DNA from: Aristaeellaceae bacterium
GTDB lineage: Bacteria; Bacillota; Clostridia; Christensenellales; Aristaeellaceae
NCBI GenBank assembly: GCA_051883835.1
Contig: JBJEUL010000176.1
Location: forward strand, 1 to 59,209
Direction: 5' to 3'
DNA: 59,209 nucleotides
The notes under the pieces were generated by a model that saw nothing but the letters and a program-made list of their open reading frames with translations, did no database searches and was not told the origin of the DNA. The translations under genes were made by a program, and so were the position numbers. Below, one piece after another: positions 3,941 through 57,437 of this stretch; the stretch's first letter is position 1, and each line of letters opens with the position of its first letter.

Positions 3941-4999
3941 ATGTACAAGACCCGTGTCGTCCCCGTGGGGACGCTGAAGCTGGGCGGCGACAACCCCGTG
4001 TGGGTGCAGTCCATGACCAACACCGACACCGCCGATGTCCCTGCAACGCTGAATCAAATCCGCGCACTGGCGGAAGCCGGATGCGATATCGTGCGCGTGA
4101 GCGTATACAACGAGGCCTGCGCCCGTGCCGTGCGCCAGCTGGTGGACGCATCCCCCGTACCGCTGGTGGCGGACATCCACTTTGACCATCGGCTGGCCCT
4201 GCTGGCCATGGAAAACGGCATTCACAAGCTGCGCATCAACCCCGGCAACATTGGCGGGGAGAAGAACGTGCAGGCCGTGGCGGACTGCGCCAAGGCCCAT
4301 CATGTACCCATCCGCATCGGGGTGAACAGCGGCTCCATTGAGCGGGATATCCTCGCCCGGGACGGCGGCCCCACGGCCCGGGGCATGGTGGACAGCGCGC
4401 TGAATCACGCCCGGATGCTGGAAAAGGCAGGCTTTGGCGATATCGTGCTGTCCATGAAGGCCAGCGATGTGCGCCTGACCATCGAAGCCTATGAGCTGGC
4501 GGCGCAAAGCTGCGACTATCCCCTGCATGTGGGCGTGACGGAAGCCGGACTGCCGGGGCAGGGCACCATCAAGAGCGCGATTGGCATTGGTGCGCTGCTG
4601 GCGCGGGGGATTGGCAGCACCATCCGCGTGAGCCTGACGGGCTCGCCCATTCCCGAGGGCAAGGCCGCGTGGGATATCCTGCGCGCGCTGAACCTGCGCA
4701 CACAGGGGGTGCAGCTGGTATCCTGCCCGACCTGCGGGCGCACGGCCATTGACGTGGCGGGGATTGCGGCGCGGGTGGAAGCGGAGCTGGCGGATGTGAA
4801 GGTGCCGCTGAAGGTGGCCGTGATGGGGTGCGTGGTGAACGGCCCCGGCGAGGCGCGGGAAGCGGACATCGGCATTGCTGGCGGCAAGGGCTGCGGTGCC
4901 TTGTTCCGCAAGGGCCAGGAGCCAGTGAAGGTAGAAGGCGACCTTGCCGAAATCCTCATCCGCGAGGCCCGCAAAATCGCCGCCTCCAAAACCGAGTAA
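3941..4999 (+). CDS. ispG: 4-hydroxy-3-methylbut-2-enyl diphosphate synthase (flavodoxin)
   Basis: MYKTRVVPVGTLKLGGDNPVWVQSMTNTDT start, Fe-S ligands in VSCPTCGRT and GCVVNGPGE. GGAGG-type RBS before ATG 3941; the longer ORF from 3542 overlaps rseP and is not used. Confidence 0.93.
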   Translation: MYKTRVVPVGTLKLGGDNPVWVQSMTNTDTADVPATLNQIRALAEAGCDIVRVSVYNEACARAVRQLVDASPVPLVADIHFDHRLALLAMENGIHKLRINPGNIGGEKNVQAVADCAKAHHVPIRIGVNSGSIERDILARDGGPTARGMVDSALNHARMLEKAGFGDIVLSMKASDVRLTIEAYELAAQSCDYPLHVGVTEAGLPGQGTIKSAIGIGALLARGIGSTIRVSLTGSPIPEGKAAWDILRALNLRTQGVQLVSCPTCGRTAIDVAGIAARVEAELADVKVPLKVAVMGCVVNGPGEAREADIGIAGGKGCGALFRKGQEPVKVEGDLAEILIREARKIAASKTE

Positions 5000-5207
5000 C
5001 TCCAAGGGACCGCGCCAGCGGAAAGGGGTCAAGGGGCGATGCCCCTTGTGGGGTGCAGGGGTGAAACCCCTGCGCAGGTCTGGGCGGCAGCCCAGCGCAA
5101 CACGTTAGACCGGCAAAAAGGAAAAGAGAAAAACGCGAGTTTCCCAGCAGACGGCGCAGCCCACCCGCGTCGGAAACGGCAGGTTCCGCCATCTGCAAAG
5201 GAACGCC
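5000..5207 (+). repeat. Multi-hairpin intergenic repeat, copy A (full length; module 2 diverged)
   Basis: Starts 1 nt after the ispG TAA. Carries the CGCGCCAGCG core, hairpins CAAGGGGC-GAT-GCCCCTTG, GCAGGGGT-GAA-ACCCCTGC and CTGGGC-GGCA-GCCCAG, a purine-rich linker, the GTTTCC...GGAAAC module, and the GTTCC...GGAAC hairpin. Confidence 0.9.
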
Positions 5208-5235
5208 TTTCCCCTCCCGTATGGCTCCCACCATC

Positions 5236-5272
5236 GCAAAACAGCCCGTTCCGGTTCTGCACCGGGACGGGC
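5236..5272 (-). terminator. Intrinsic terminator of the XRE regulator gene
   Basis: Stem GCCCGTTCCGG/CCGGGACGGGC (5244-5272). On the minus strand it is followed by TGTTTTG. Confidence 0.5.
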
Positions 5273-5274
5273 CA

Positions 5275-5517
5275 TTATCGTATTTCCTGCCCCAGATGCT
5301 GGAACAGCGGAGAATCGAAAAACGCCTGAATGGAGATGTCCAGCCCATCGCAGAGCTTCTTCAACGTGGAAAGGGTAACGCTGTGATTGCGGCCGTTGAC
5401 GATGTTGTTCACCGTGGACTGTGTTACGCCGCTGAGCGTACACAGGCGGTTCACCGTGATGCCCCGCTCCTGACACAGCTCCAGAATCCGCTCACGAACG
5501 GCTTCACCAATCATCAT
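5275..5517 (-). CDS. XRE-family helix-turn-helix transcriptional regulator (80 aa)
   Basis: IGEAVRERILELCQERGITVNRLCTLSGVTQSTVNNIVNGRN is a typical HTH_XRE pattern. Convergent with ispG. Confidence 0.8.
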   Translation of the reverse strand: MMIGEAVRERILELCQERGITVNRLCTLSGVTQSTVNNIVNGRNHSVTLSTLKKLCDGLDISIQAFFDSPLFQHLGQEIR

Positions 5518-8700: not shown

Positions 8701-10181
8701 TGAGCAAGGACGGCTTCGACATTCCCTTCGAGGTGTTCCTGGGCTTTGAGGGCGACAAGGTGCCCGATATCGACCTGAACTTCTCCGGCGAGTACCAAAA
8801 CCGCGCCCACCACTATGTGGAGGAGCTCTTCGGCCATGACCATGTGTTCCGCGCAGGCACCATCACGGGCCTTGCGGACAAGACGGCCTATGGCTATGTC
8901 GCGAAGTACCTGGAGGAGCGGGGCATTCAGACGGGCAACACGGAAAAGGAGCGGCTGGCCGCAGGCTGCGTGGGCGTGAAAAAGACCACCGGCCAGCATC
9001 CCGGCGGCATGGTGGTGGTGCCCAAGGAATACGAAATCTACCAGTTCACCGCCGTGCAGCATCCTGCGGACGATTTGGAGAGCGACTTTACCACCACGCA
9101 TTTCGACTTCAACTCCATGCACGACATTCTGGTCAAGCTGGACTGTCTGGGGCATGATGACCCCACGGTCATTCATATGCTGGAGGAGCTGACGGGCATC
9201 CCGCCCACGGAGGTGCCGCTGGATGACCCGGCAGTGCGCAGCCTGTTCCACTCCCCGGAGGCTCTGGGCGTTACCTCCGAGCAAATCGACTGCTCCACGG
9301 GCACCTTCGGCATCCCGGAATTCGGCACGGCCTTTGTGCGCGGCATGCTGGACGATACCACGCCTTCCACCATGGAGGAGCTGATTCGCATCTCCGGCCT
9401 GTCCCACGGCACGGACGTGTGGCTGGGCAATGCGCAGGATTTGATTCGCTCCGGCACAGCCGTGCTGCGGGAATGCGTCTGCTGCCGTGACGATATCATG
9501 AACTACCTCATCGACCGGGGCGTGGCCCCCAAGCTGGCCTTCACCACCATGGAGTCGGTGCGCAAGGGCAAGGGCCTCAAGCCTGAGATGGAAAAGGCCA
9601 TGATAGACAACAACGTGCCGGAATGGTTCATTGATTCCTGCAAGAAAATCAAGTACATGTTCCCCAAGGGCCATGCTGTGGCCTATGTGACCAGCGCACT
9701 GCGCATTGCGTGGTTCAAGGTGCATCATCCGCTGGCCTATTACGCGGCGTACTTCACCGTGCGCGGCGATGGTTTCGATGCCTGCACCATGCTCATTGAC
9801 CCGCAGACCATCAAGCAGAAAATCCGCGATATCAAGAACGATCCCAAGGCCACTGCCAAGGATCAAACCGCCGTCACCAGTCTGGAGCTGGTGCTGGAAA
9901 TGAACATGCGCGGCTTCCGCTTCCTGCCCTGCGACCTGTACAAGAGCCACGTCAGCCGCTTCCTGATTGAGGACGGCGCGCTGCGCTGCCCCTTCACGAG
10001 CCTGGGCGGCCTGGGCGAAAGCGCGGCCATCGCCATTGTGCGCGAGCGCGACAAGGCCCCCTTCCTGTCCATTGAGGACATGAAGGAGCGCACCAAAATA
10101 TCCAGTGCCGTCATCGAGCTGCTCCGCGCCCACGGCAGTCTGGAGGGTCTGAGCGAAACCAGCCAGGTAAGCTTCTTCTAA
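5757..10181 (+). CDS. polC: DNA polymerase III PolC-type alpha subunit
   Basis: PHP motif ELHMHTNMS, inserted DEDD exonuclease (VLDFESTGL, HNAAFD, HRAVHDA), zinc finger CTHC/CPLC, polymerase core. GGAG RBS before ATG 5757. Confidence 0.95.
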   Translation: MSYEDLLSQIYAALPHLKGQLSSPRVVYVWAQGKVYITFDSAVLVEEAAFLKMESILRKVFPQKPLALRVVSPGLKEDFLDNISRYKQVLTDFLKRNYPASVSWMEQIDWRCDGERITLTFPDDFSLQYMARQNITGRLAQAVKDIFSADVKVELTVAGNQEARLEEMRRERDKALQAAVTLQELASDHAAPPKEKKERKPTAPRPKKEPEKAPEKKPEPIFPQMTDTALGKPILGRGIADHPVEMKELASDSGLVVVQGDIFKLETKELKGGEMLLVTFAITDYTSSILCKTFLRFRKGGGFGRRKDDEAPLPPITEEERRAVMEKVEQIKLGMNVKVRGECLYDSFARELSISVRDMVPMERIEREDTAEEKRIELHMHTNMSNMDAMTPAGDLIKRAIKWGHPAVAITDHGVVQSFPAAFNAVKKQPIKLIPGCEGYLIDDKDVVKDADDRPLDDTIIVLDFESTGLNTAVDRVIEIGAVKLVGGTVTDSLSLLVNPQRPLSPKITEITGITDMMLADKPTAEQAIPQLMAFMDGHPIAAHNAAFDAALLQAELRRLGITYHAPVLDTLTLARKLYPDMKTHKLGSVCKQLGVSLKNAHRAVHDATATALCLAKMFQQIKEEKGYTKLSDLNLLQGGAIGESYHVILLVKTQAGLVNLNRLVSIGHLDYFRRRPHMPKKIIQQYREGLIIGSACEAGELFRAVLDNEPWEKLKEIASWYDYLEIQPIGNNAFLVREGRVPDEEGLRELNRTIVRLGEELGKPVVATGDVHFLDPHNAINRAIIQAGMGYEDCDQQPPLYFKTTNEMLEEFAYLGPKKCHEVVIDNPRMIADQVEKLQLFPIHPKGEDTFQPLWEDAADNIQNMTWNTARELYGDPLPEIVVKRLEKELKSIIGYGFATLYNIAQKLVKKSNDDGYLVGSRGSVGSSLVARMCGITEVNALPPHYRCTHCRKGFFDVDKSLYQVGVDLPDKDCPLCGKPLSKDGFDIPFEVFLGFEGDKVPDIDLNFSGEYQNRAHHYVEELFGHDHVFRAGTITGLADKTAYGYVAKYLEERGIQTGNTEKERLAAGCVGVKKTTGQHPGGMVVVPKEYEIYQFTAVQHPADDLESDFTTTHFDFNSMHDILVKLDCLGHDDPTVIHMLEELTGIPPTEVPLDDPAVRSLFHSPEALGVTSEQIDCSTGTFGIPEFGTAFVRGMLDDTTPSTMEELIRISGLSHGTDVWLGNAQDLIRSGTAVLRECVCCRDDIMNYLIDRGVAPKLAFTTMESVRKGKGLKPEMEKAMIDNNVPEWFIDSCKKIKYMFPKGHAVAYVTSALRIAWFKVHHPLAYYAAYFTVRGDGFDACTMLIDPQTIKQKIRDIKNDPKATAKDQTAVTSLELVLEMNMRGFRFLPCDLYKSHVSRFLIEDGALRCPFTSLGGLGESAAIAIVRERDKAPFLSIEDMKERTKISSAVIELLRAHGSLEGLSETSQVSFF

Positions 10182-10366
10182 AGGGATCGCGCCAGCGTCG
10201 AAGGGGTCAAGGGGCGATGCCCCTTGTGGGGTGCAGGGGTAAAACCCCTGCGCAGGTCTGGGCGGCAGCCCAGCGCAACATATTCGAACAGCCAAAAGGA
10301 ATCGGAAAAAATCAGAGTTTCCAAGCAGACGACGCAGTTCGTTCGCGCCGGAAACGGCAGGTTCCG
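10181..10366 (+). repeat. Multi-hairpin intergenic repeat, copy B (modules 1-2)
   Basis: Begins at the polC TAA. Same three hairpins (hairpin 2 loop AAA) and module 2 with a TCGTT (G:T wobble) variant. Confidence 0.9.
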
Positions 10367-10443
10367 CAGCCTGCACCGCAGAGCCTAATTAACGCACTGG
10401 AGCTTCCATCAACAAGGGAAGGCCAGCGTTCAGGAGGTATATC

Positions 10444-11262
10444 ATGGCTACGTTGCATCGTGTCCGTGTGGTCGCCATTGGCGGGGAGGAGGATATGCTC
10501 CGGCTGTGCCGCGTCATGCTGCGCAACTGTGGCGAGGAGGAGGATCCGTCGGAGGAGCTTCCGCCCATGAAGCTGGAGGAACTGCTGGCCCAGATTCAGC
10601 ATCGCGCCGAGGAGGAGGGAAGCCCGGAGGAATGCGGCTTCTACTACGGCATGCTGGGCAGTCGGCTCTATGGCCACGCGGATGCCGACAGCTGCCGCTT
10701 CCGGGTGCGTCAGGAGCCCTGCGGCCTGTGGACAGCCACCTTTTCCTATGACAGCGGCGAGCCCTTCCAGCAGGAGGACTGGCTGCGGCTGCACAACGCC
10801 TGCGGGCATCTGCCCCTGCTGGCCCTGCGGGCCTCGTGGGACTTTGCCCGGGCCAAGGGGATGCTCATCTTCACCGGAGGGCATATCCTGGAAAACTGGG
10901 AGCGTATGGAGGAAGCGTGGATGTACCTCATCGCCCAGTATGAGTGCGGCTATCCCCCGGAGGAAGCCGTGCGCAGGCTGGAGAAGCTGCAAGCGACCCT
11001 CGAGCGGGAGGACTGCGACCTGACCATTGACCAGCTGCTGACAGGCTGCATGGACAATCTGCGGGATGTTGCCGACCACACGGCTGACCCTGCGCTGATT
11101 CGGGACATGATGCAGCAATGCCGCGAAAAGCGGGACTATCAGGGCCTGTTCATGCTGCAATGCCATGTGGCGGAGGCCGCGCTGTGGGACACGGAGCACA
11201 ACGGCCGCTGGCTGGCCACGCTGGAAGCGGTGCGTCAGGCCTGGCAGGCGCATCAGGCATGA
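10444..11262 (+). CDS. Hypothetical acidic cytoplasmic protein (272 aa), no family recognised
   Basis: Long ORF with a strong AGGAGG RBS 6 nt upstream of ATG 10444. No TM segment, signal peptide or motif that I can name. Confidence 0.6.
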   Translation: MATLHRVRVVAIGGEEDMLRLCRVMLRNCGEEEDPSEELPPMKLEELLAQIQHRAEEEGSPEECGFYYGMLGSRLYGHADADSCRFRVRQEPCGLWTATFSYDSGEPFQQEDWLRLHNACGHLPLLALRASWDFARAKGMLIFTGGHILENWERMEEAWMYLIAQYECGYPPEEAVRRLEKLQATLEREDCDLTIDQLLTGCMDNLRDVADHTADPALIRDMMQQCREKRDYQGLFMLQCHVAEAALWDTEHNGRWLATLEAVRQAWQAHQA

Positions 11263-13492: not shown

Positions 13493-14977
13493 ATGAACAA
13501 GAAGGCTTTGCTTGCGCTGCTGCTGGTGATGGCCATGCTGCTGTCCGGCTGCGCGCTGGTCGAGAAGGATATGGCGGTTGACCGCGCCACGGAAATCATC
13601 CGCGTGGGTGACCGGGTCTTTACCAAGGGTGAAATTCAGGACGAGGTTGACTATCAGCTCAACTACACGGCGTACCTGTACAGCATGTTCGGCATGAGCT
13701 ATGATATCACCAGCGAAGCGGTCATTGCGCAAGCGCAGCAGGCTGTGGTGGATGCGCTGGTGGAGCAGGCCGTGTCCGAGGCGAAGATTGCCGAGCTGGG
13801 CCTGGATCAGCTGACCGAGGAGGAGCAGGCCGAGCTGGACGCGAATGCCGCTGCCACCTGGCAGTCCAATCTGGACAGCATTCAGCGCAGCTATCTGGCC
13901 GATACCGAGCTGACCGGCGATGAGCTGACCGCCGCGCTGGAGGCCAAGGCGGCTGAGCTGGGCGTGACGTATGAGAGCGTGGTGGACTACGAGAAGTCCG
14001 TCATCACGGCTGAGAAGCTGTACAATTACGTCATCGCGGATGTGGTCGTGACCGATGCGGAGCTGCAAGCTGCCTATGACGAGCAGGTGGAGCAGGCCAA
14101 GACCACCTATACGTCCAGCCCCGCCAGCTATGTGTCTGCCGCCAATGCGGGCAGCACCGTGTATTACCGTCCCGCCGGCTTCCGGCAGGTCAAGCAGATT
14201 CTGATTTCCTTTACGGAGGAGGATCAGGCGGTGCTGGACGAGCTGGACAGCAAGATTGCCGATGAGGAGGCCCTGATTGCTTCCTACATGAGCAGCCTGA
14301 GTGCTCTGGGCATCACCGATGTGGACGCGCTGGTGCAGCAGGTGAATGTCACGCTGGAGCAGGCCGCTGCGGAGGATACCGACCCGGCGACCCAGACCGA
14401 CCTTGCCGCCGCGGTTGTGGCGACTGTGACCGACATCAGCGATTCCTTTGGCGAGGAAGTGACCGAGGAAGTGGCCGAGCTGGCCCGCCTGCTGGCTGAG
14501 TCCAAGGAGAAGCTGTCCTTCTACAGTGCACAGCAGAAGATGGCTGAGAAGCTGGCCTATGCCGCCATCGCGCCCGAAGCGGATGACGTGCTGGCGCAGC
14601 TGGCTGACGGTGCGGACTGGGATACCCTCATGGCCGAAAAGACCGACGACCCCGGCATGCAGGGCGACAGTGTGACCGCGCAGAACGGCTACACCATCTA
14701 CGCCGAGCAGACCAACTTTGACGAAGCGTTCCTGACTGCCGCCATGGCCCTGGAGAACGTGGGCGATGTGTCCGACAAGGTGCAGGGCATGTACGGCTAT
14801 TACATCATCCAGTACACCGCTGATGTGGTGGAGGGCCCTGTGGCCCTGGAGGAGGTCAGCGAAACGCTGTCCGCCGAGCTGCTGTCCGACAAGCAGGACA
14901 CCACCTATGACGCGACGGTCGCGCAGTGGATTGAAGCCGCCAAGCCCACAATCGACTACAACGCCCTGAACAACTAA
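13493..14977 (+). CDS. Secreted lipoprotein with SurA-N/PpiC-type peptidyl-prolyl isomerase architecture (PrsA-like foldase)
   Basis: Signal peptide MNKKALLALLLVMAMLLSGC with a lipobox Cys, long acidic helical region, C-terminal rotamase-like GYTIYAEQTNFDEAFLTAAMALENVGDVSDKVQGMYGYYIIQY. Confidence 0.72.
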   Translation: MNKKALLALLLVMAMLLSGCALVEKDMAVDRATEIIRVGDRVFTKGEIQDEVDYQLNYTAYLYSMFGMSYDITSEAVIAQAQQAVVDALVEQAVSEAKIAELGLDQLTEEEQAELDANAAATWQSNLDSIQRSYLADTELTGDELTAALEAKAAELGVTYESVVDYEKSVITAEKLYNYVIADVVVTDAELQAAYDEQVEQAKTTYTSSPASYVSAANAGSTVYYRPAGFRQVKQILISFTEEDQAVLDELDSKIADEEALIASYMSSLSALGITDVDALVQQVNVTLEQAAAEDTDPATQTDLAAAVVATVTDISDSFGEEVTEEVAELARLLAESKEKLSFYSAQQKMAEKLAYAAIAPEADDVLAQLADGADWDTLMAEKTDDPGMQGDSVTAQNGYTIYAEQTNFDEAFLTAAMALENVGDVSDKVQGMYGYYIIQYTADVVEGPVALEEVSETLSAELLSDKQDTTYDATVAQWIEAAKPTIDYNALNN

Positions 14978-14978
14978 T

Positions 14979-15187
14979 CTCCAAGGGAACGCGCCAGCGT
15001 AAAAAGGGTCAAGGGGCGATGCCCCTTGTGGGGTGCAGGGGCAAGGCCCCTGCGCAGGTCTGGGCGGCAGCCCAGCGCAACACGTTCCATTTACTCAAAG
15101 GGAAAAGAAGCAACGTGAGTTTCCAGGCAGACGACGCAGTTCGTCCGCGTAGGAAACGGCAGGTTCCGAAGCCCGCCAGGGAACGCC
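14979..15187 (+). repeat. Multi-hairpin intergenic repeat, copy C (full length)
   Basis: Begins 2 nt after the stop of the PrsA-like gene. Hairpin 2 carries the C-G closing-pair variant GCAGGGGC-AAG-GCCCCTGC. Confidence 0.9.
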
Positions 15188-15226
15188 CTCATCCCCCGCT
15201 GCGCCCCGTTCCATTCCCGACAAACC

Positions 15227-15262
15227 AAAGGGACAGTCTGCCACCATGCAGGCTGTCCCTTT
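15227..15262. terminator. Bidirectional terminator between the PrsA-like gene (plus repeat C) and the GNAT gene
   Basis: AAAGGGACAG-16 nt-CTGTCCCTTT. An A-run and a T-run flank the stem. Confidence 0.55.
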
Positions 15263-15285
15263 CGCGTGAACCGGCCCGTCAGCCT

Positions 15286-15843
15286 TCACAGCCCCCGCAC
15301 CCAGTAATCCCCGTAGCGCGTCCCATCATGCCCAATGAGCGGCGCATCCCCCGGCAGGAATCCTCGCATCCGCAGGGCTTCCCTGCGCGCCTGTGCCACC
15401 GGCGGAGCCTTGATGGCCACCCTGTCCGCGTGAAACAGCTCCTTCAGGCAGGGCAAAAGCAGGTCAAGGCATGCGCCGTTGATGTCGGGGGTCTCCATAT
15501 CTCCCCGCAGGTCGATGCGCAGCAGCGCACAGCCGCCGTAAGCATCCTCCGCCACGCGGTGAAAGCATTCCACCGTGCCAATGGGCCCTCCCGCCGCCAC
15601 CATGGCCCAGCGCACAAAATATCCCTGCGCGTAGCTGTCCAGCCAGAACTGCACAGCCTGCTGCATCCGCGCCAGGGTCGGATAGTGGAAATGGTCCCCG
15701 TGGCAGTTGTCGCTGTTGAAAAAGGGCAGGCGCGTTTCATCCCCGTAGACGGACATCAAAGCTGCCGCGTCTGCCATGGTGACGGGCCGCAGGGTCAGGG
15801 TCGGGCTGGTCAGCGTGGGACAGTGGGCGTATACATCAGGCAT
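15286..15843 (-). CDS. GNAT-family N-acetyltransferase (probable)
   Basis: About 185 aa. TLRPVTMADAAALMSVYGD start and RWAMVAAGGPIGTVECFHR central strand resemble the RimJ/RimL-like GNAT fold. Start chosen at the ATG preceded by AAGGA. Confidence 0.6.
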   Translation of the reverse strand: MPDVYAHCPTLTSPTLTLRPVTMADAAALMSVYGDETRLPFFNSDNCHGDHFHYPTLARMQQAVQFWLDSYAQGYFVRWAMVAAGGPIGTVECFHRVAEDAYGGCALLRIDLRGDMETPDINGACLDLLLPCLKELFHADRVAIKAPPVAQARREALRMRGFLPGDAPLIGHDGTRYGDYWVRGL

Positions 15844-15955
15844 GACCATCATCCTTTCATGAAGGGAATATTCGTTCGTATTCGCGCAGGAACGCAACTT
15901 CTCCTTCCCATGGGGCGAAAAATATGGTATCATCATCGGGAAAGGAGTGACGTTC

Positions 15956-16324
15956 ATGCAATTCACCTTTGCGCACAACAACATCAACGTCCTGAATCTG
16001 GACAAGTCCCTGACCTTTTACAAGGAGGCTCTGGGCCTGACCGTGGCCCGGGAAAAGGAAGCCGCTGACCACAGCTTCAAGCTGGTGTACCTCACCGACG
16101 GCACCACCCCTCACCTGCTGGAGCTGACCTGGCTGCGTGACCGCACCGAGCCCTACAACCTGGGCGATAACGAAATCCATCTGGCCTTTGTGGTAGAGGA
16201 CTTCGATGCCGCCCATGCCCTGCATGAGAAGATGGGCTGCATCTGCTACGAGAACCCCGGCATGGGCATCTACTTCATCGTGGACCCGGACGGCTATTGG
16301 CTGGAAATTGTCCCCAAGCGGTAA
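15956..16324 (+). CDS. VOC-family protein / glyoxalase I-like (lactoylglutathione lyase)
   Basis: FAHNNINVLNLDKSLTFYKEALGL ... LELTWL ... NEIHLAFVVEDFDAAH ... YFIVDPDGYWLEIV, a paired beta-alpha-beta-beta-beta VOC pattern. AGGAG RBS. Confidence 0.8.
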   Translation: MQFTFAHNNINVLNLDKSLTFYKEALGLTVAREKEAADHSFKLVYLTDGTTPHLLELTWLRDRTEPYNLGDNEIHLAFVVEDFDAAHALHEKMGCICYENPGMGIYFIVDPDGYWLEIVPKR

Positions 16325-17363: not shown

Positions 17364-18719
17364 TTGATTCATACATTCAAGGCGGTGGGCCAGCCCATGC
17401 TGCTGGACGTGGGCAGCGGCGCGGTTCATGCCATCGACGATATGGCTTATGATGTGCTGAGCCTGTGGAACGACCACAGCGAGGCCGAAATCAAGGACGC
17501 GCTCCGGGACCGCTACACCGAGGCGGAGCTGGACGAGGTCATCGGCGAGCTGAAGCAGCTGGAGGAAATCGGCGCGCTCAACGCTCCCGACAACTATGAC
17601 GATGTGGAGCAGGTTCGCGAGAAGGGCACCATCAAGGCCATGTGCCTGCATGCCGCCCATGACTGCAACCTGCGCTGCAAGTACTGCTTTGCCGCCACGG
17701 GCGATTTCTGCATGGGTGAGCGCAAGCTCCTGCCCTACGAGGTGGGCAAGGCCGCGCTGGACTGGCTGGTGGAGCACAGCGGCAAGCGCGTGAACCTGGA
17801 GGTGGACTTCTTCGGCGGTGAACCGCTGATGAACTTCGAGGTGGTGAAGCAGCTGGTCGCCTATGGCCGCTCCATCGAGCAGGAGAAGCACAAGAAGTTC
17901 AAGTTCACCATCACCACCAACTGCGTGCTGATGAACGATGAAATCATCGACTTCCTGAACCGGGAAATGCACAACGTGGTCATCTCCATGGATGGCCGCC
18001 CCGAGGTGCATGACCGCATGCGCCCCACCGTCAACGGCAAGGGCAGCTACGCCATCATTGCCGAGAAGGCCAAGAAGTTCGCCGCCGCCCGCGGGGACAA
18101 GGAATACTACGTCCGCGGCACCTACACCGGCTACAACAAGGACTTCGGCAATGATGTGCTGTTCCTGGCGGATGAAGGCTTCGAGCAGCTGAGCGTGGAG
18201 CCTGTGGTCACCGACCCCCAGTGCGAGTACGCCCTGAAGGAGGAGGATTTGCCCCAGCTCAAGGCCGAGTATGACCGGCTGGCGCAAATCTACCTTGACC
18301 GCCGCGCCAACGGCAAGTGGTTCAACTTCTTCCATTTCAATGTGGATTTGGCAGGCGGCCCCTGCCTGCGCAAGCGGCTCACCGGCTGCGGCGCGGGCAA
18401 TGAGTACGTTGCCGTGACCCCCGATGGCGACATTTACCCCTGCCACCAATTCGTGGGCCGGGAGGGCTACCGGATGGGCAGCGTGCTGGACGGCACCTTT
18501 GACACGGAAATTCAGGACAGGTTTGCCCGCAACAACGTGTTGGCCAAGGAAAAGTGCCGGGAATGCTGGGCGCGGTTCTTCTGCTCCGGCGGCTGTGCGG
18601 CCAATGCGGAGGCCTTCCACGGGGACATCTCGCAGCCCTACGACATGGAGTGCCAGCTGGAGCGCAAGCGTCTGGAATGCGCCATGGCCATCTACGCCCG
18701 TGAGCATGCACGTTCCTGA
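17364..18719 (+). CDS. SCIFF radical SAM/SPASM maturase (thioether-forming)
   Basis: CNLRCKYC radical SAM cluster (CX3CX2C), GGEP motif, C-terminal SPASM cysteines (CGAG...YPCHQF...CRECWARFFCSGGCAA). TTG start with AGGAGG 8 nt upstream. Confidence 0.9.
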   Translation: MIHTFKAVGQPMLLDVGSGAVHAIDDMAYDVLSLWNDHSEAEIKDALRDRYTEAELDEVIGELKQLEEIGALNAPDNYDDVEQVREKGTIKAMCLHAAHDCNLRCKYCFAATGDFCMGERKLLPYEVGKAALDWLVEHSGKRVNLEVDFFGGEPLMNFEVVKQLVAYGRSIEQEKHKKFKFTITTNCVLMNDEIIDFLNREMHNVVISMDGRPEVHDRMRPTVNGKGSYAIIAEKAKKFAAARGDKEYYVRGTYTGYNKDFGNDVLFLADEGFEQLSVEPVVTDPQCEYALKEEDLPQLKAEYDRLAQIYLDRRANGKWFNFFHFNVDLAGGPCLRKRLTGCGAGNEYVAVTPDGDIYPCHQFVGREGYRMGSVLDGTFDTEIQDRFARNNVLAKEKCRECWARFFCSGGCAANAEAFHGDISQPYDMECQLERKRLECAMAIYAREHARS

Positions 18720-18724
18720 CAATT

Positions 18725-18912
18725 CCCCAGGGACCGCGCCAGCGGAAAGGGGTCAAGGGGCGATGCCCCTTGTGGGGTGCAGGGGTGAAGCCCCTGCGCA
18801 GGTCTGGGCGGCAGCCCAGCGCAACACGTTCGCATTGTAAAACGGAACCGCAAAAAACGTGAGTTTCCAAGCAGACGACGCAGTTCGTCCGCGCTGGAAA
18901 CGGCAGGTTCCG
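18725..18912 (+). repeat. Multi-hairpin intergenic repeat, copy D (modules 1-2)
   Basis: Begins about 6 nt after the SCIFF-maturase TGA. Hairpin 2 has the T:G variant (GCAGGGGT-GAA-GCCCCTGC). Confidence 0.9.
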
Positions 18913-18972
18913 CAGCCTCTATCGGTGTGCCCTCGCCCCAGTCGTATCTTTGCAGATTCTATAGAAAAAAGC

Positions 18973-23766: not shown

Positions 23767-24600
23767 ATGAAGGTACTGGTAACGGGTGCGGCAGGCCGTC
23801 TGGGTGCAGCGGTGATGCGCTGCCTGCGGGACAGACGGGTGGATTGCCTGGGCGTGGATCGGGAGGACTTTGACCTGCTGGATGGCGCGGCGGTGCATCG
23901 CGCCGTGCAGGCGTACAGGCCGGATGCCATCCTCCATTGCGCCGCCTACACCGATGCGGAGCAGGCCGAAACGGAACCGCAGAAGTGCGCCGAGGTCAAC
24001 GGCATGGGCACGCTGAACGTGGTGCGTGCCGCGCTGGCGGTGGATGCCAAACTGATGTATATCTCGGACGTGGCCGTGTTCCCCGGCGATGGCGACAGAC
24101 CCTGGGAAACCACGGAGCGCACCAACGCCCGCAGCGTCTACGGCCTGACCAAGGCGCAGGGTGAGGAAGCCATTTCCAGCCTGATGACCCGGTACTTCAT
24201 CGTCCGCACCTCCTGGCTCTACGGCGGGGAAGGGGAGGACTTTGTGCAGCAAGTGCTGACCATGGCACAGGGCCGGAGCGAAATCATCATGTGCGGCACG
24301 GAGGTGTCCTCGCCCACGCTGACGCCGGAGCTGGCCCAGCGGCTGTGCGACATGCTGGCCACGGAACGCTACGGCGTGTATCACATGGTGGGCGAGGGCT
24401 TCTGCACCCGGGCGGAATGGGCCAGCAGCATCCTGCGCCTGTCGGGCACCCGCTGTACGGTGCGCCCGGTGGATACACCCTGGATGGCCAAGGTGCCCCG
24501 GAATGGTCGCCTGAGCACCGCCAGTCTGACCCAGGAAGGCTTCGAGAAGCTGCCCCCCTGGGAGGACTCCCTCACCCATTACCTAACCCAAACCCGCTAA
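23767..24600 (+). CDS. rfbD: dTDP-4-dehydrorhamnose reductase
   Basis: MKVLVTGAAGRLG start, YGLTKAQGE (YxxxK), last gene of the rfbACBD block. GGAGGGAG RBS before ATG 23767. Confidence 0.9.
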   Translation: MKVLVTGAAGRLGAAVMRCLRDRRVDCLGVDREDFDLLDGAAVHRAVQAYRPDAILHCAAYTDAEQAETEPQKCAEVNGMGTLNVVRAALAVDAKLMYISDVAVFPGDGDRPWETTERTNARSVYGLTKAQGEEAISSLMTRYFIVRTSWLYGGEGEDFVQQVLTMAQGRSEIIMCGTEVSSPTLTPELAQRLCDMLATERYGVYHMVGEGFCTRAEWASSILRLSGTRCTVRPVDTPWMAKVPRNGRLSTASLTQEGFEKLPPWEDSLTHYLTQTR

Positions 24601-24610
24601 CCCCCCCCCA

Positions 24611-24816
24611 ACGGACCGCGCCAGCGGAAAGGGGTCAAGGGGCGATGCCCCTTGTGGGGTGCAGGGGTGAAACCCCTGCGCAGGTCTGGGCGGCAGCCCA
24701 GCGCAACACGCCCGAACAGCAAAAAAGGAAAAGAGAAAACGTGAGTTTCCAAGCAGACAACGCAGTTCGTCCGCGTAGGAAACGGCAGGTTCCGCATACC
24801 TGCATGAGGAACGACC
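24611..24816 (+). repeat. Multi-hairpin intergenic repeat, copy E (full length)
   Basis: Follows the rfbD TAA after a C9 run. All four hairpins are present. Module 2 has GACAA (one mismatch). Confidence 0.9.
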
Positions 24817-24837
24817 TCATCCGACTTCGCTTCGCCC

Positions 24838-24872
24838 GGCCTACTCCCTGCATAGGGAGCAGGCCGCTTTTT
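24838..24872 (+). terminator. Intrinsic terminator downstream of repeat E
   Basis: GGCCTaCTCCCT-GCAT-AGGGAGcAGGCC followed by GCTTTTT. Confidence 0.6.
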
Positions 24873-24877
24873 ATGCC

Positions 24878-25275
24878 TGTGGATAACCTGCGCACCTGAA
24901 AGTTTTGACGGCAACAGGGCAATTTCCTGCATTTGCAGGAGCAGCATGGCCCGAAAGGGCCTGTTCGCCACCGATTCGGACAATGACAGGACAATCCAAT
25001 CATCATTTTTGTGCATAAATATGCAATTCAACAATTGGGGATATATCCAAAGAACGCCAAAAGTCCCGTGTTTGGCTGGGGATAAAATGCCCCGGAGCAG
25101 GGGAAAGCATGTGGAGGAAAGCTGTGGAAAACCTGTGGATAATGTGGATAACTCAGAAAGAATGGCGTAAATCAAGGATTTTCCGTTCGCAAGGCTGTGG
25201 ATAACGCTGTGCATTGTGTGGATGGATAACGCACTTACCCACAGGCCGAAAATGAAGGAGGCTTCATTTTCCACA
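24878..25275. promoter_or_regulatory. DnaA-box cluster in an AT-richer intergenic island
   Basis: Perfect TGTGGATAA (complement of TTATCCACA) at 24878, 25134, 25143 and 25196. One-mismatch boxes at 25077, 25123 and, inverted, 25267. Two-mismatch boxes at 25110 and 25217. AT-rich stretch at 25005-25050. Confidence 0.75.
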
Positions 25276-25372
25276 GCGGGGCTATGCATGGAAAAACGGT
25301 ATGCCAGATTTTCCATGCCGATGTTCTTGCAGGGTCGGACAGCGCATACCCTGTCGGCAGGAGGTGCGTGCC

Positions 25373-26137
25373 ATGGACGGAAGCAGGGCGCAACGGTGGC
25401 TGGCGGTGGCGGTGGTCGTCACGCTGGCGGTGGGGACGGTGGTGGCGGTGCTGGCAGCCCGGCGGTCAGCAACACAAGAGACATCACCCACACCTGCGCA
25501 GGCAACAACGGCCCCGGAGCCGCTGCCACTGACCGGCTGGGTCATTCTGGTGGACCCGGGTCACGGCGGCTATGACGGCGGTGCCAGAGCCCGCAGCAGC
25601 GGCGTGTGGGAGAAGCATATCAACCTCTCTGTCGCACTGGAGGTCGAAAAAAACCTCGTCGCCCGGGGTGCATCCGTGGTGATGACCCGACGGACAGACG
25701 AGGATTTGTGCGAGGAGGAACGCCCCGCCGCCCTGACGAAAAAACGGCAGGACATGCAAAACCGCGTGGCCATTGCCGTCAACAGCCACGCGGATATGGT
25801 GCTATCCATTCATATGAACGAGTACCGGGACAGCCGTCAATCCGGCCCGCAGGTGTTCTATCGCCAGGGCGCGGACGCGGGACGGCTGCTGGCAGGCTGC
25901 TTGCAGGCTGCGCTCATCACCGGCCTGCAGCCCATCCGGGAGCGTCAGGCCATGGCGGGTGACTACTTCATCCTGCAATTGGAGGTGCCCTCCGCCCTGG
26001 TGGAGTGCGGGTTCATCTCCAACCCGGCGGAGGAAAAGCTGCTGCTCACGTCCGAGTATCAGGCGCGTCTGGCACAGGCCATTGCCGATGGGGTGGAGGA
26101 ATATGCCGCCCTGTGCCCCAAGGCCGACACCCTTTAG
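25373..26137 (+). CDS. cwlD: N-acetylmuramoyl-L-alanine amidase, CwlD-like (Amidase_3)
   Basis: N-terminal TM anchor, VILVDPGHGGYDGGA, LSIHMNEY, ALVECGFISNPAEEKLL. AGGAGG 8 nt before ATG 25373. Confidence 0.78.
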   Translation: MDGSRAQRWLAVAVVVTLAVGTVVAVLAARRSATQETSPTPAQATTAPEPLPLTGWVILVDPGHGGYDGGARARSSGVWEKHINLSVALEVEKNLVARGASVVMTRRTDEDLCEEERPAALTKKRQDMQNRVAIAVNSHADMVLSIHMNEYRDSRQSGPQVFYRQGADAGRLLAGCLQAALITGLQPIRERQAMAGDYFILQLEVPSALVECGFISNPAEEKLLLTSEYQARLAQAIADGVEEYAALCPKADTL

Positions 26138-31259: not shown

Positions 31260-31735
31260 CCATCGCCCGCTTTGAGCATGTATCCCCCCGGCAGTATGAG
31301 CAGGACATGCACCTGCCGGATGCCCTGCCCGTGGCGGATATCCCGCTGCCGCGCCGCGCCACACAGGGCAGCGCAGGGTACGACTTCACCTGCCCCGCTA
31401 CCGTGACCCTTGCACCGGGGCAGCAGGCCGTCATCCCGACGGGGGTGCGGGTCAGCATCGCGCCGGGGTGGGTACTGCTCAACTGTCCCCGCAGCTCGCT
31501 GGGGCGCAGGCACGGCATTCGCCTGGCCAATACGATTGGCGTGATTGACAGCGATTACTATGGTGCGGACAACGAGGGCCATATTCTGGTCATGCTGGTC
31601 AACGGCGGCGACCACAGCGTGACCATTGCCCGGGGCGAACGCTTCTGCCAGGGCATCTTCGTCCCCTTCGGCCTGGCCGAGGAACCCGAGGTACTAACCC
31701 AGCGCAGCGGCGGCTTCGGCTCCACCGGCACATAA
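31256..31735 (+). CDS. dut: dUTP diphosphatase
   Basis: GSAGYDF, GVIDSDYYG, RSGGFGSTG motifs. 4-nt overlap with rsmA. Confidence 0.85.
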   Translation: MTIARFEHVSPRQYEQDMHLPDALPVADIPLPRRATQGSAGYDFTCPATVTLAPGQQAVIPTGVRVSIAPGWVLLNCPRSSLGRRHGIRLANTIGVIDSDYYGADNEGHILVMLVNGGDHSVTIARGERFCQGIFVPFGLAEEPEVLTQRSGGFGSTGT

Positions 31736-31736
31736 C

Positions 31737-31845
31737 CTCCAAGGAACCGCGCCAGCGTCGAAGGGGTCAAGGGGCGATGCCCCTTGTTCGGTAGCAGGGG
31801 TGAAACCCCTGCGCAGGGCTGGGCGGCAGCCCAGCGCAACATGTT
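31737..31845 (+). repeat. Multi-hairpin intergenic repeat, copy F (module 1 only, truncated)
   Basis: Begins 2 nt after the dut TAA and ends after CCCAGCGCAAC. Inter-hairpin spacer variant GTTCGGTAGC, similar to the GCTCGGTAGC variant of copy H. Confidence 0.85.
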
Positions 31846-40008: not shown

Positions 40009-40857
40009 ATGCCCCGAGACCTGACCCCCAACGAGAAGATTGAGCGAAGCCTCATCAAGCGTTTCCGCAAGGAATTATGGAAGCCCTTCATCGTGGCGGT
40101 GAAACGCTACGAGCTGATTCAGCCCGGGGACAGAATTGCCGTGTGCATCTCCGGCGGCAAGGATTCGATGCTGCTGGCCAAGCTGATGCAGGAGCTGCAC
40201 CGGCACACCTTCATTCCCTTTGAGCAGGTGTTCATCGTGATGGACCCGGGGTACAGCCCGGCCAACCGCGCCCGCATTGAGGAAAACGCCCGGCTGATGG
40301 AGATTCCCATTCAGATTTTTGAGAGCGACATTTTCGATGTGACCGGCAAGATGAGCTGCAATCCCTGCTACATGTGCGCCCGGATGCGCCGGGGCTTCCT
40401 CTACGACCGGGCGCGAGAGCTGGGCTGCAACAAGATTGCGCTGGGCCATCACTTCAATGATGTGATTGAAACCACCGTGATGGGCATGTTCTATGGGGCG
40501 CAGCTGCAGGGGATGATGCCCAAGCTGCACAGCAAGAACTTTCCGGGCATGGAGCTGATTCGTCCGCTGTACTGCATCCATGAGGACGATATCCTGTCGT
40601 GGTGCCGGTATAATGAGCTGACGTTCATCAACTGTGCCTGCCGTCTGACGGAGCGGGCCGCGCAGGATGTGCATGTATCCAAGCGGCAGGAGGTGAAGGA
40701 GCTGCTGCGCGCGCTGCGGCAGACGAATCCGGATGTAGAAAAGAGCGTGTTCAACAGCATCCACGCCGTGAGTCTGGACACGATGCCCGGCTGCAAGTGG
40801 CGCGGTCAGGAGCATACCTTTCTGGAGTGGTACGACACCGCCGAAGATGCAGAGTAG
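40009..40857 (+). CDS. ttcA: PP-loop ATPase, tRNA 2-thiocytidine biosynthesis TtcA-like
   Basis: PP-loop IAVCISGGKDSMLL, CNPCYMCARMRRG and CAC Cys motifs, GHHFNDVIET. Confidence 0.78.
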   Translation: MPRDLTPNEKIERSLIKRFRKELWKPFIVAVKRYELIQPGDRIAVCISGGKDSMLLAKLMQELHRHTFIPFEQVFIVMDPGYSPANRARIEENARLMEIPIQIFESDIFDVTGKMSCNPCYMCARMRRGFLYDRARELGCNKIALGHHFNDVIETTVMGMFYGAQLQGMMPKLHSKNFPGMELIRPLYCIHEDDILSWCRYNELTFINCACRLTERAAQDVHVSKRQEVKELLRALRQTNPDVEKSVFNSIHAVSLDTMPGCKWRGQEHTFLEWYDTAEDAE

Positions 40858-41071
40858 ACCCCACCAAGGGAACGCGCCAGCGGAGAAGGGTCAAGGGGCG
40901 ATGCCCCTTGTGGGGTGCAGGGGTAAAACCCCTGCGCAGGTCTGGGCGGCAGCCCAGCGCAACATGTTGAAACAACCCAAAAGGAAAAGGAAAAATCAGA
41001 GTTTCCAAGCAGACGACGCAGTTCGTCCGCGTCGGAAACGGCAGGTTCCGGGGAACTGCAAGAGGAACGCC
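40858..41071 (+). repeat. Multi-hairpin intergenic repeat, copy G (full length)
   Basis: Begins immediately after the ttcA TAG. All four hairpins are present. Forms a tail-to-tail pair with copy H. Confidence 0.9.
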
Positions 41072-41203
41072 CCATCAACACACACGGCCCTGCAGAATGT
41101 ATGCTGTCCTGCAGGGCCGTCGTATGAACAAGAAAGCTGCTGCCCGGTTGAGGGACAGCGGCTTGTGTGCATTGGGGGAACGATACGCTCCTTTGGGAGA
41201 ATT

Positions 41204-41399
41204 CGGAACATGCCGTTTCCAGCTCGAACGAACTGCGTCGTCTGCTTGGAAACTCACGCTTTTTCCTTTCTTTTTGGATAAGTGGGACGTGTTGCGCTGG
41301 GCTGCCGCCCAGACCTGCGCAGGGGTTTCACCCCTGCTACCGAGCAAGGGGCATCGCCCCTTGACCCCTTTCCGCTGGCGCGTTCCCTTGGTGGGGTCG
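41204..41399 (-). repeat. Multi-hairpin intergenic repeat, copy H (only minus-strand copy; modules 1-2)
   Basis: The reverse complement aligns end to end with the other copies (CCAAGGGAACGCGCCAGCGGAAAGGGGTCAAGGGGCGATGCCCCTTG...GAGTTTCCAAGCAGACGACGCAGTTCGTTCG). Confidence 0.9.
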
Positions 41400-41417: not shown

Positions 41418-41446
41418 TTGACGAAATGGGCGGAAAACGATATAAT
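41418..41446 (+). promoter_or_regulatory. Putative sigma-A promoter of the small-ORF-secDF unit
   Basis: TTGACG (41418-41423), 17 nt, TATAAT (41441-41446). Confidence 0.5.
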
Positions 41447-41500
41447 AGCGTCATTGTGTGCGGCAGAAGCATTCGGGCATCGGGAAAGGAGCGTGTGCGC

Positions 41501-41839
41501 ATGAAATACGCCGGGCGGATTGTGCTGGGGCTGTGCTTTGCGCTGCTGCTCCTTCTGGGCGCGCGGACGCTGGTGGAGGGGCCGCAGGAAACGGCGCATG
41601 CCCTGCCCTGCCTGCCGGAGGGCAGTCTTGTGGCCCTGGAGGCCCAGACAGTCCAGCAGGGAGCCACGGCGCAGGAGGATACCCGTCCCACCTTCCGCGA
41701 GCGCGCCGCACGGCAGGAATTGCAGGCTCAGGGGCCTGCCCTCCTCCCCGTGCGCGACCGCAACGGCCGCCCCATGGCCAGCCGTACCTATGCCCGAACC
41801 GCCTATACGGTCTGTCCCATGGAGGATATGCCCGGATAG
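41501..41839 (+). CDS. Hypothetical small secreted/anchored protein (112 aa)
   Basis: N-terminal hydrophobic segment MKYAGRIVLGLCFALLLLLGA. GGAAAGGAG RBS and a consensus promoter upstream. No family recognised. Confidence 0.45.
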   Translation: MKYAGRIVLGLCFALLLLLGARTLVEGPQETAHALPCLPEGSLVALEAQTVQQGATAQEDTRPTFRERAARQELQAQGPALLPVRDRNGRPMASRTYARTAYTVCPMEDMPG

Positions 41840-44127: not shown

Positions 44128-44337
44128 CTCCAAGGGACCGCGCCAGCGGAAAGGGGTCAAGGGGCGATGCCCCTTGTGGGGTGCAGGGGTGAAGCCCCTG
44201 CGCAGGTCTGGGCGGCAGCCCAGCGCAACACGCCCCACTTATCCAAAAGGAAAGGAAAAAGCGTGAGTTTCCAAGCAGACGACGCAGTTCGTCCGCGCTG
44301 GAAACGGCAGGTTCCGGGGACTGAAAGAGGAACGACC
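44128..44337 (+). repeat. Multi-hairpin intergenic repeat, copy I (full length)
   Basis: Begins 1 nt after the secF TAA. The first 31 nt from the stop codon (TAACTCCAAGGGACCGCGCCAGCGGAAAGGGG) are identical to copy A. Hairpin 2 has the T:G variant. Confidence 0.9.
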
Positions 44338-44507
44338 TCATCCGACCTCGCAGCCCTCGGCCCCGAAGACTTTCCGCCCCCTCTCGCTGGGCTTCCTGCC
44401 CAACATGCGGTGCCGTGAAATACCACTTCCTTGACAAACAGAGGAGGGGCCTTGATGTTCAAGGTTCCTCCTTTTCGATTCAGCCATGAAGGATGGAGGC
44501 AAGACCC

Positions 44508-57433: not shown

Positions 57434-57437
57434 GTCA

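Follow-up and report, generated by a model that had tools for sequence, protein, structure and literature searches.

A modular GC-rich hairpin element located directly behind stop codons in uncultured gut Clostridia

What places the same short repeat behind the stop codon of gene after gene? This question is raised by a stretch of 59,209 nucleotides (nt) from an Aristaeellaceae bacterium (assembly GCA_051883835.1, contig JBJEUL010000176.1, positions 1 to 59,209 of the forward strand; the whole stretch is referred to as the window), which contains ten copies of a GC-rich hairpin element. All ten are intergenic; eight are full-length, one of these reversed, and two consist of the 5' module only. 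The element is a non-coding modular repeat, small and mobile or formerly mobile, that has colonised uncultured gut Clostridia of the Aristaeellaceae and neighbouring groups. With some reserve, we favour the view that it constitutes a new interspersed element akin to repetitive extragenic palindromes (REPs), BOX repeats and miniature inverted-repeat transposable elements (MITEs), characterised by oriented insertion close to stop codons. No description of the element, including the sequence of its hairpin hp1, was found in the literature searched.

A scan of the window for the exact decamer CGCGCCAGCG, the core of the element, returned nine matches on the + strand (5011, 10188, 14990, 18735, 24617, 31748, 40873, 44139 and 57450) and a single match on the - strand (41373). 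The open reading frames (ORFs) upstream of the forward cores end at 4997-4999, 10179-10181, 14975-14977, 18717-18719, 24598-24600, 31733-31735, 40855-40857, 44125-44127 and 57431-57433. The recomputed gaps between stop and core are, in copy order, 11, 6, 12, 15, 16, 12, 15, 11 and 16 nt, in agreement with the 6-16 nt given in the initial annotation. Its gene names hold as well: NCBIfam assigns the upstream genes to ispG, polC, a PrsA-like peptidylprolyl isomerase, the SCIFF maturase, rmlD/rfbD, dut, ttcA and mutS2, and the identity of SecF is confirmed by Pfam. The junctions at ispG and secF are indeed identical (TAA-CTCCAAGGGACCGCG), and AACTCCAAG follows the mutS2 stop. Chance was modelled as uniform placement over the element-free intergenic bases of the window in both orientations, which gives a probability of P = 0.06 per position for a sense orientation at most 16 nt from a stop; at least nine of ten window copies in sense orientation and at most 16 nt after a stop would then be expected with P ~1e-10. 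The reverse copy (41186-41399) has no co-oriented gene before its 5' end. The observation of stop-adjacent forward copies is confirmed, and stop-codon adjacency together with sense orientation is far above chance, also in other genomes.

Alignment of the ten window copies yields an element length of 100-240 nt. Each copy opens with a junction (J) motif, (C/T)NC-CAAGGGAAC, and with hp0, a 3-bp mini-hairpin (CGC-GCCA-GCG, with the loop variants GGCA and GAA in other genomes) that corresponds to the core noticed initially. These are followed by GAAAAGGG, hp1 (CAAGGGGCGATGCCCCTTG), hp2 (GCAGGGG-loop-CCCCTGC), hp3 (CTGGGC-GGCA-GCCCAG) and GCGCAAC. The hairpins hp1, hp2 and hp3 are GC-rich and 16-23 nt long, and hp0-hp3 make up the 5' module of about 100 nt. 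A linker of 35-40 nt, whose A/G-rich composition and AAGGAA-like core are present in all copies, separates it from an optional 3' module of about 60 nt, GTTTCC-(inner hairpin)-GGAAAC-GGCAGGTTCC. The element ends with a second J motif and the first bases of hp0 (CTGCAAGGGAACGCC). The copies behind dut and mutS2 are limited to the 5' module, and those behind rmlD and secF carry an extra module C. This module of roughly 40 nt, GACCTCATCCGAC(C/T)TCGC...CGGCC (24817-24841 and 44338-44362 in the window), is also found at the loci L029, L042 and L053 of other genomes (L numbers denote loci outside the window); in L029, CCACCTTCCCCGGAGGGGAAGG comes directly behind it. A covariance model of the 5' module detected no further copies in the window, and Rfam gave no match at gathering score over the whole window, its weak best match on one element scoring at most 15 bits. 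As a possible pre-existing genomic target, CAAGGGAAC is not enriched outside the elements.

A coding reading, based on ORFs of 83-349 amino acids that start from an ATG in the hp1 loop, was rejected, as the frame is not conserved: indels of 1 nt and 4 nt distinguish the copies, and a TAG is present in the hp2 loop of many subfamilies. Since stop codons are rare in GC-rich sequence, each element opens such spurious ORFs (e.g. 5039-5329, 10217-10570, 15019-16068 and 44167-44418), which automatic annotation may call genes. A further feature of the 5' module is a spare G-run located 4 nt upstream of both hp1 and hp2 (5021-5075 in the window and equivalents in all copies). The resulting patterns, GGGG-TCAA-GGGG..CCCC and GGGG-TGCA-GGGG..CCCC, are conserved across subfamilies and, judged from the sequence, would allow slipped alternative hairpins or a four-tract G-quadruplex on the sense strand.

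Beyond the window, a scan for hp1 in one genome per species identified at least 61 loci. Among the matches listed, most come from metagenome-assembled genomes (MAGs) that represent uncultured Clostridia of the pig, ruminant, rabbit and human gut, including several Aristaeellaceae and 'Eubacteriales SUG2562', and Clostridia MAGs other than that of the window carry the same composite element in several subfamilies. The window is itself part of this group: its IspG is 94% identical to IspG of the Aristaeellaceae MAG PUUB17 (L060), and the closest relatives of the window SecF and Ppx (87-94% identical) are likewise Aristaeellaceae. No hp1 was found in the viral contigs scanned. Whole units are arranged as tandem arrays in L051, L021 and L029, always joined at CAAGGGAAC. 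For the analysis of placement, the 5' end of an element was defined as the start of the covariance model, real genes were recognised by a test based on GC content at third codon positions (GC3), internal array units were removed and orthologous sites were counted once. Of the 37 independent sites outside the window among the matches listed, 26 carry the element in sense orientation and with a start between -8 and +21 nt relative to a stop (p = 0.074 by chance, giving P about 1e-21). The 35 stop-adjacent copies show a median distance of 5 nt between stop and element, and 30 of them lie at 8 nt or less, compared with the 43% expected if copies were spread evenly over the 0-20-nt spacer between stop and terminator (P = 2e-7). 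Sense copies outnumber antisense copies behind stops by about 35:1.

Parts of the element also occur in other arrangements. At L034 (6760-7045), the 3' module alone is repeated four times in tandem with a 63-nt period and the junction motif CAAGGGAAG behind each unit; this array runs antisense to both neighbouring genes and has been conserved at L053, the orthologous site. At L002 (231-1277), two full-length copies face each other, each behind the terminator of the outer gene, and flank a GNAT acetyltransferase gene of lower GC content (about 555-994), an arrangement that resembles a composite transposon. Looser arrays of GGGGC-NNN-GCCCC hairpins, which share or begin with hp1/hp2, are present in other gut Clostridia. 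In MAG SIG372 (L006, L020, L022, L030, L043, L045), they stand directly behind a repeated terminator-like hairpin, CCCGGAAATCC-TTCA-GGATTTCCGGG; further arrays are found in RGIG and other MAGs (L010, L013, L032, L052, L055), those of the RGIG MAGs being interleaved with an 80-90-nt unit that begins with CAGCGGGAAACTG. The element of the window seems to belong to a larger superfamily of hairpin arrays. An exact match to the 20-nt hairpin hp1, TCAAGGGGCGATGCCCCTTG, is, in addition, contained in unrelated AT-rich interspersed repeats of Bacteroidota with genomes of 32-40% GC: a Saprospiraceae MAG (L005, L014, L048, L056), Plebeiibacterium marinum (L012, L031, L039) and a member of the Bacteroidales (L023). 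These repeats have their own conserved flanks and are located between ORFs that represent ordinary genes. The presence of hp1 in two phyla hints at a common trans-acting factor or at horizontal spread, and may also be a chance coincidence.

Comparison of orthologous sites demonstrates that the element is an insertion, which related species have gained or lost. In relatives with a 94% identical SecF (L142-L145), secF is followed by TAA, 20 nt, the terminator AGGAGGAGCC..GGGTTCCTCCTTTT and recJ; in the window, the order is TAA, ~310 nt of inserted sequence, the same terminator at 44440-44481 and recJ. A plain terminator is likewise found at 80 secF loci of more remote relatives (identity of 81% or less). 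L148 has no element at prsA; there, the hairpin AAGGGACAGCCTGC..GCGGGCTGTCCCTT is located 18 nt behind the stop, and the window keeps this hairpin at 15228-15262. The polC site is empty in L148, L149 and L150, and the SCIFF-maturase site is empty in L148 and L149 with ordinary terminators. The C-terminus of PolC is unchanged (..SFF), with the stop TAA in the window and TGA in the empty relatives. These four window sites are empty in relatives of 78-94% protein identity. The empty sites and the terminators kept downstream of the insert at secF and prsA indicate a gained insertion in the 3' untranslated region (UTR), and a general role as terminator substitute, which had been offered initially, does not apply. 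The element itself is without a U-tract. Other orthologous sites are occupied across species with 80-94% protein identity (ispG, L007/L017/L024 and L034/L053), and several species show synteny of the core genes around these sites (ispG-polC, secDF-recJ-relA). Empty alleles were not recoverable from Logan contigs of pig-gut metagenomes, in which contigs break at the repeat and depth spikes alone are visible, and an exact-protein look-up of the window Dut returned no record. In L149 (3700-4100; MAG LOHA14), two direct repeats of ~200 nt that are unrelated to the element follow the PrsA-like gene, each opening with the terminator-like hairpin CAAGGGAGACGGTTCATCATGAACCGCCTCCC.

The initial annotation had placed all nine genes at the ends of operons, in part because the next gene lies more than 150 nt away. 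This criterion is circular, since the element alone occupies 100-210 nt, and polC and probably mutS2 are not operon ends. The distance from polC to the next gene is 40-70 nt in L148 and L150, with no hairpin between them in L150, which places the polC copy inside an operon. At L007/L017/L024, the element is inserted between the stop and the ribosome-binding site of the next gene in a likely operon. Terminator-like hairpins are located downstream of five window copies (ispG, prsA, rmlD, ttcA and secF), and none was seen behind the polC, mutS2, dut and SCIFF-maturase copies.

The structure was tested with a hand-drawn model comprising hp0-hp3 and the two stems of the 3' module in 30 copies, and 96% of its cells are paired. 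Compensatory changes were observed in 13 pairs; shuffling gave 3.6 (none of 500 shuffles reached 13), controls with slid partners gave no more than 4, and single-copy folding gives z = -4.7. A long-range closing stem predicted by folding, GGGAC.GCC with GGC.GTTCC, is not supported, as it is lost in subfamilies with GCGGCAGCG or GCGAAGCG and broken when hp0 changes from GCC to GGC. Identity between the window copies amounts to 94.5% in the 5' module and 90.7% in the 3' module, but 60.9% in the linker, and this contrast between conserved modules and variable linker is also present in MAG PUUB17. Orthologous sites carry the subfamily of their own genome with whole hairpins exchanged, as seen for ispG (window, L060 and L004) and for L007/L024 versus L017. 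Module identity and genome-typical subfamilies together suggest that the modules are kept or homogenised while the linker drifts. Evidence for transcription is provided by contigs from two pig-gut metatranscriptome runs (X26 and X27), which proceed from coding sequence through the stop into the 5' module; one of them matches the L029 site. In X26, the depth of the 5' module exceeds that of the 3' module more than 10x, which could reflect many 5'-only copies or RNA processing. Given these contigs and the downstream terminators, co-transcription with the upstream gene is the simplest reading, with the element residing in a transcribed 3' UTR or intercistronic spacer.

According to the reading that we favour, the element has been inserted, in sense orientation, into the short transcribed but untranslated segment that separates a stop codon from the gene's own intrinsic terminator; it consequently lengthens the 3' UTR, or the intercistronic spacer, by a highly structured stretch of RNA. 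The stop-abutting position and the sense bias would be set mainly at insertion, because the distances are tighter than the available spacer, the bias reaches ~35:1 and no obvious selection acts against antisense copies ahead of the terminator. The insertion mechanism would be oriented and tied to the direction of gene expression, not to replication. As a candidate, and speculatively, a hairpin-folded single strand may integrate into the non-template strand where ribosome-free transcription begins. After insertion, purifying selection or gene conversion would preserve the hairpin modules while the linker drifts. Likely effects on the host include a block of 3'-to-5' exonucleases by the stacked stable 3' hairpins, and a structure at the edge of the terminating ribosome that could act like REPs and 'ribosome termination structures' (RTS). 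A bolder version, in which mobilisation reads the end of translation and a hairpin-folded single-stranded DNA or RNA intermediate enters the non-template strand where it becomes exposed as the transcribing polymerase loses its trailing ribosome, past the stop codon and before the terminator, is rather improbable. If true, it would represent the first bacterial interspersed element with a target defined by gene expression rather than by sequence, and a shared trans-acting enzyme would explain hp1 in unrelated repeats of other phyla.

Several observations weigh against oriented, stop-proximal insertion. The orthologous comparison proposed in the initial annotation produced empty sites, but the empty-site species are 6-22% diverged at the protein level; exact junctions are thus unreadable, and insertion exactly at the stop is what we infer. 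No clear target-site duplication was detected, and none is copy-specific at secF, prsA, polC or SCIFF maturase, as all copies share one flanking direct repeat, CAAGGGAACGC, which hence belongs to the element. The terminal inverted repeat is weak (GGGAACGCGCC versus GGCAGGTTCC(G), 8/11 positions). No transposase or recombinase was found near any copy, the window neighbours being housekeeping genes. When 140 ORFs close to copies at 33 loci, about 1% of each genome, were scanned with Pfam, the 25 families listed of 91 comprised housekeeping functions alone and no mobility enzyme; the REP-associated tyrosine transposase (RAYT, a Y1 HUH transposase) is absent from these families and from the window. 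About a quarter of the sites break the rule of stop-adjacent sense placement. The antisense exceptions are the window copy at 41186-41399, L019 (5751) and the orthologous pairs L008/L036 and L034/L053, the latter with a 3' end 20 nt from a stop; two L002 copies are placed behind terminators. In the stems, G.U and A.C mismatches are about equally frequent (about nine each), so that the hairpins are not assignable to RNA rather than single-stranded DNA. The metatranscriptome contigs are unstranded and may include DNA carry-over. Finally, the strong conservation of the modules could stem from a function in the host instead of mobility.

Selection for a useful 3' RNA structure is a serious rival, which may act alongside insertion targeting, and the present data fit both. 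Taken alone, it would mean that the element lands broadly and that only sense, stop-adjacent copies are retained as a host-selected RNA module, possibly as a block to 3' exonucleases, as a processing site in the A-rich linker or as insulation of translation termination. We regard this as conceivable but doubtful. The difference in identity between hairpin modules (91-95%) and linker (61%), the compensatory changes in the hairpins, the retained A/G-rich composition and AAGGAA-like core of the linker, the transcription with the upstream gene and the continued occupation of orthologous sites across species are all consistent with it. Precedents near stops are also available: REPs within 15 nt of a stop are described as stalling ribosomes (PMC12306157, citing Liang et al.), and stable mRNA structure just past stops defines RTS (PMC7518266). 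However, the genes concerned are functionally unrelated, close relatives do without the element at the same sites, and the 3' end is already protected by a native terminator hairpin at five sites or more. Antisense and post-terminator copies are equally intact, tandem and module-only arrays resemble selfish DNA, and a strand-specific G.U signal is lacking. Another possibility, which we consider unlikely, is that the element inserts at a sequence-specific DNA target, 3' of TAA (or TRA), a motif rare outside stops in a genome of 62% GC, and that orientation is inherited from the asymmetric target at stops. The + strand of the window contains 89 TAA, about a quarter of them stop codons. TAA is enriched at element-adjacent stops (25/35, versus 18/43 other window genes; Fisher p = 0.012) and directly abuts many copies (TAA|CTCC.., TAA|CAAGGGAAC), and the different polC stops of window and empty relatives would fit as well. 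Yet 10 of the 35 stop-adjacent copies sit behind TGA or TAG at junctions without TAA, several TAA-associated copies begin 7-19 nt past the stop, and copies away from stops (the window reverse copy, L019, L008/L036, L002) have no TAA at the 5' junction. No sequence is conserved upstream of the stops. TAA itself as the target, a possibility raised in the initial annotation, is not borne out; TAA is only enriched.

A bias of replication strands could also make gene orientation appear relevant if single-stranded DNA entered the lagging-strand template. IS200/IS605 elements move in this way, as single-stranded DNA into the lagging-strand template, and most Clostridia genes are co-directional with replication. 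Hairpin-rich ends suit single-strand transposition, and the + strand carries 46 of the 52 window genes along with nine of the ten copies. This explanation is nevertheless very improbable. In L033, each gene of a convergent pair has its own sense copy, which shows that orientation follows the gene and not the direction of replication; the copies in L019, L042 and L059 are sense to one member of a convergent gene pair. A ratio of ~35:1 has P = 0.003 if 20% of the genes are on the lagging strand, and the stop-abutting position is left unexplained. We give equally little credence to a role as terminator substitute or as a leader that regulates the downstream gene, even though GC-rich hairpins stand directly behind genes and no other terminator-like hairpin follows the polC, mutS2 and SCIFF-maturase copies. 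None of the hairpins is followed by a U-tract, terminator scans do not call the element on the sense strand, and there is no Rfam match. The relatives' terminators are retained at secF and prsA, and the rmlD, ispG and ttcA copies have terminator-like hairpins downstream. Moreover, the downstream genes are unrelated and sometimes convergent, and in L007/L017/L024 the element precedes a ribosome-binding site inside a likely operon.

The element works like several families of small repeats, yet each of them has defining features that it lacks. REPs and bacterial interspersed mosaic elements (BIMEs) of Enterobacteria and Pseudomonas, mobilised by RAYT, are likewise short GC-rich hairpins in many extragenic copies, mostly in 3' UTRs, co-transcribed and homogenised within one genome; a sizeable share of REPs is located less than 15 nt past a stop (PMC12306157), and REPs stabilise upstream mRNA. 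REP units are imperfect palindromes of 20-40 nt in high copy, a description that also suits hp1-hp3 and the ten elements in 59 kb. In contrast, four to five distinct hairpins are combined here in one orientation into a fixed composite with an A-rich linker, and all hairpins and array units are co-oriented, unlike the alternating REPs of BIMEs. About 75% of the sites are stop-adjacent, compared with 11-52% reported for E. coli REPs, and the sense bias is far stronger. The foot of the REP palindrome is a conserved GTAG or CGTC tetranucleotide (PMC3733652); here, GGTAG precedes hp2 in a minority of copies (window 31748 and 41373; L021, L028, L036), and most have GGGTG. The BOX (boxA-boxB(n)-boxC) and SPRITE repeats of pneumococci, also Firmicutes, are modular with a variable number of internal modules, MITE-like, RNA-structured, co-transcribed and enriched near the 3' ends of coding sequences, with SPRITE orientation mirroring the coding strand (PMC3049150). 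The present element shares no sequence relation with them, is GC-rich, stands before rather than instead of the terminator and abuts the stop within a few nucleotides, which is not described for BOX/SPRITE. Enterobacterial repetitive intergenic consensus (ERIC) and Correia-type MITEs, as described in the same source (PMC3049150), are also non-autonomous, co-transcribed and folded as RNA, with orientation-dependent effects on upstream mRNA stability and RNase E or RNase III sites. Each of them is one long imperfect palindrome bounded by clear terminal inverted repeats and TA duplications, and both orientations occur, whereas the present element has multiple hairpins, weak inverted repeats, no visible duplication and one dominant orientation. 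With 100-240 nt and no conserved frame, it agrees with the MITE size of <300 bp and absence of coding capacity, but the identical flanking repeat CAAGGGAACGC takes the place of a copy-specific target-site duplication. Presence/absence polymorphism at four orthologous window sites is typical of mobile elements.

Mycobacterial interspersed repetitive units (MIRUs), the subject of 1997 work by Supply et al., are reportedly oriented with the flanking genes, located directly after stops in intercistronic spacers and arranged in tandem arrays, and their small ORFs are said to overlap the start and stop of flanking genes, leading to translational coupling. The gene-oriented, stop-adjacent, intercistronic and tandem arrangement is shared, but an internal ORF is not: the hp1 loop contains an ATG, but its frame is not maintained from copy to copy, and an in-loop TAG occurs in many subfamilies. 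Integron attC sites are single long hairpins that fold as single-stranded DNA and end in ..AAC / GTT.., and the transposon Tn7 targets a single gene at attTn7, downstream of glmS. Both resemble the present sites in their position just past a stop and their fixed orientation relative to the gene, and the ends GGGAAC .. GTTCC of the element are comparable to those of attC; the flanking genes are, however, syntenic housekeeping genes and not cassettes. RTS also begin a few nucleotides past the stop, at the edge of the terminating ribosome, but they are a statistical property of unrelated local sequences and not a repeated mobile family (PMC7518266). Intrinsic terminators differ by their U-tract, and terminator hairpins lie downstream of the element at five sites.

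REP, BOX, ERIC and Correia repeats shape mRNA stability and translation, and their choice of site is mostly unclear; in the uncultured Clostridia that dominate animal guts, small interspersed repeats have hardly been studied. Stop-abutting sense copies combined with filled and empty orthologous sites offer a clean system for separating the insertion machinery from selection on 3' UTRs. For annotation, the elements are relevant because they create spurious ORFs, break metagenome assemblies and lengthen the 3' UTRs of housekeeping genes, and they offer strain markers for these bacteria.

Along the window, the full-length copy after ispG (5000-5207, +; stop 4997-4999; 117 bits) comprises the J motif CTCCAAGGGACC, hp0, hp1, hp2, hp3, the A-rich linker, the 3' module and the terminal repeat CTGCAAAGGAACGCC. 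Downstream of it, before a convergent helix-turn-helix gene (5275-5517, -), a strong hairpin (5244-5272; -24 kcal/mol) is probably the shared terminator of both genes. For the full-length copy after polC (10182-10385, +), the start called by the covariance model falls on the TAA stop (distance -3); downstream, at 10413-10428, there is a partial J+hp0 remnant, CAAGGGAAGGCCAGCG, and no terminator was seen between this copy and the next gene (10444). Full-length copies also follow the PrsA-like gene (14978-15187, +), where the native bidirectional terminator hairpin shared with the convergent gene is retained downstream (15228-15262), and the SCIFF maturase with its TGA stop (18720-18931, +). After rmlD, the full-length copy (24601-24816) extends with module C (GACCTCATCCGACTTCGC..CGGCC) to 24841 on the + strand and is followed by an intrinsic terminator, a hairpin and then GCTTTTT (24838-24873, +). 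The short copy after dut (31736-31840, +; 103 bits) contains hp0-hp3 only. A full-length copy is located after ttcA with its TAG stop (40858-41071, +), and a strong hairpin (41086-41118; -25 kcal/mol) separates it from the reverse full-length copy (41186-41399, -); this facing pair encloses just 115 nt. At secF, the full-length copy (44128-44337) continues with module C to 44362 (+), additional inserted sequence extends to about 44424, and the native terminator AGAGGAGGGGCC..AGGTTCCTCCT TTTCGATT (44440-44481, +; -24.6 kcal/mol) is retained downstream. The short copy after mutS2 (57434-57537, +) consists of the 5' module, and no terminator was seen between it and the next gene, a response regulator that starts at 57598.

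Two further features of the window were noted. The 5' end of the reverse copy is located 20 nt from the -35 box of a near-consensus + strand promoter (TTGACG-17-TATAAT, 41418-41446), which drives a small gene upstream of secD (41503-41839; region 41418-41839). Its product of ~112 amino acids has a signal-peptide-like N-terminus and no Pfam match, and the gene is conserved in the relatives L143-L146. The second feature is a cluster of DnaA boxes (TGTGGATAA) at 24878-25275, within the 700 nt that separate the rmlD terminator from an Amidase_3 gene (25301-26137). The four exact boxes all lie on the + strand, and another five deviate at one position; over the whole window, 17 matches were counted versus 5.4 expected. 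As gene strand does not switch at this position, the site probably represents a cluster of DnaA boxes or a promoter under DnaA control rather than oriC.

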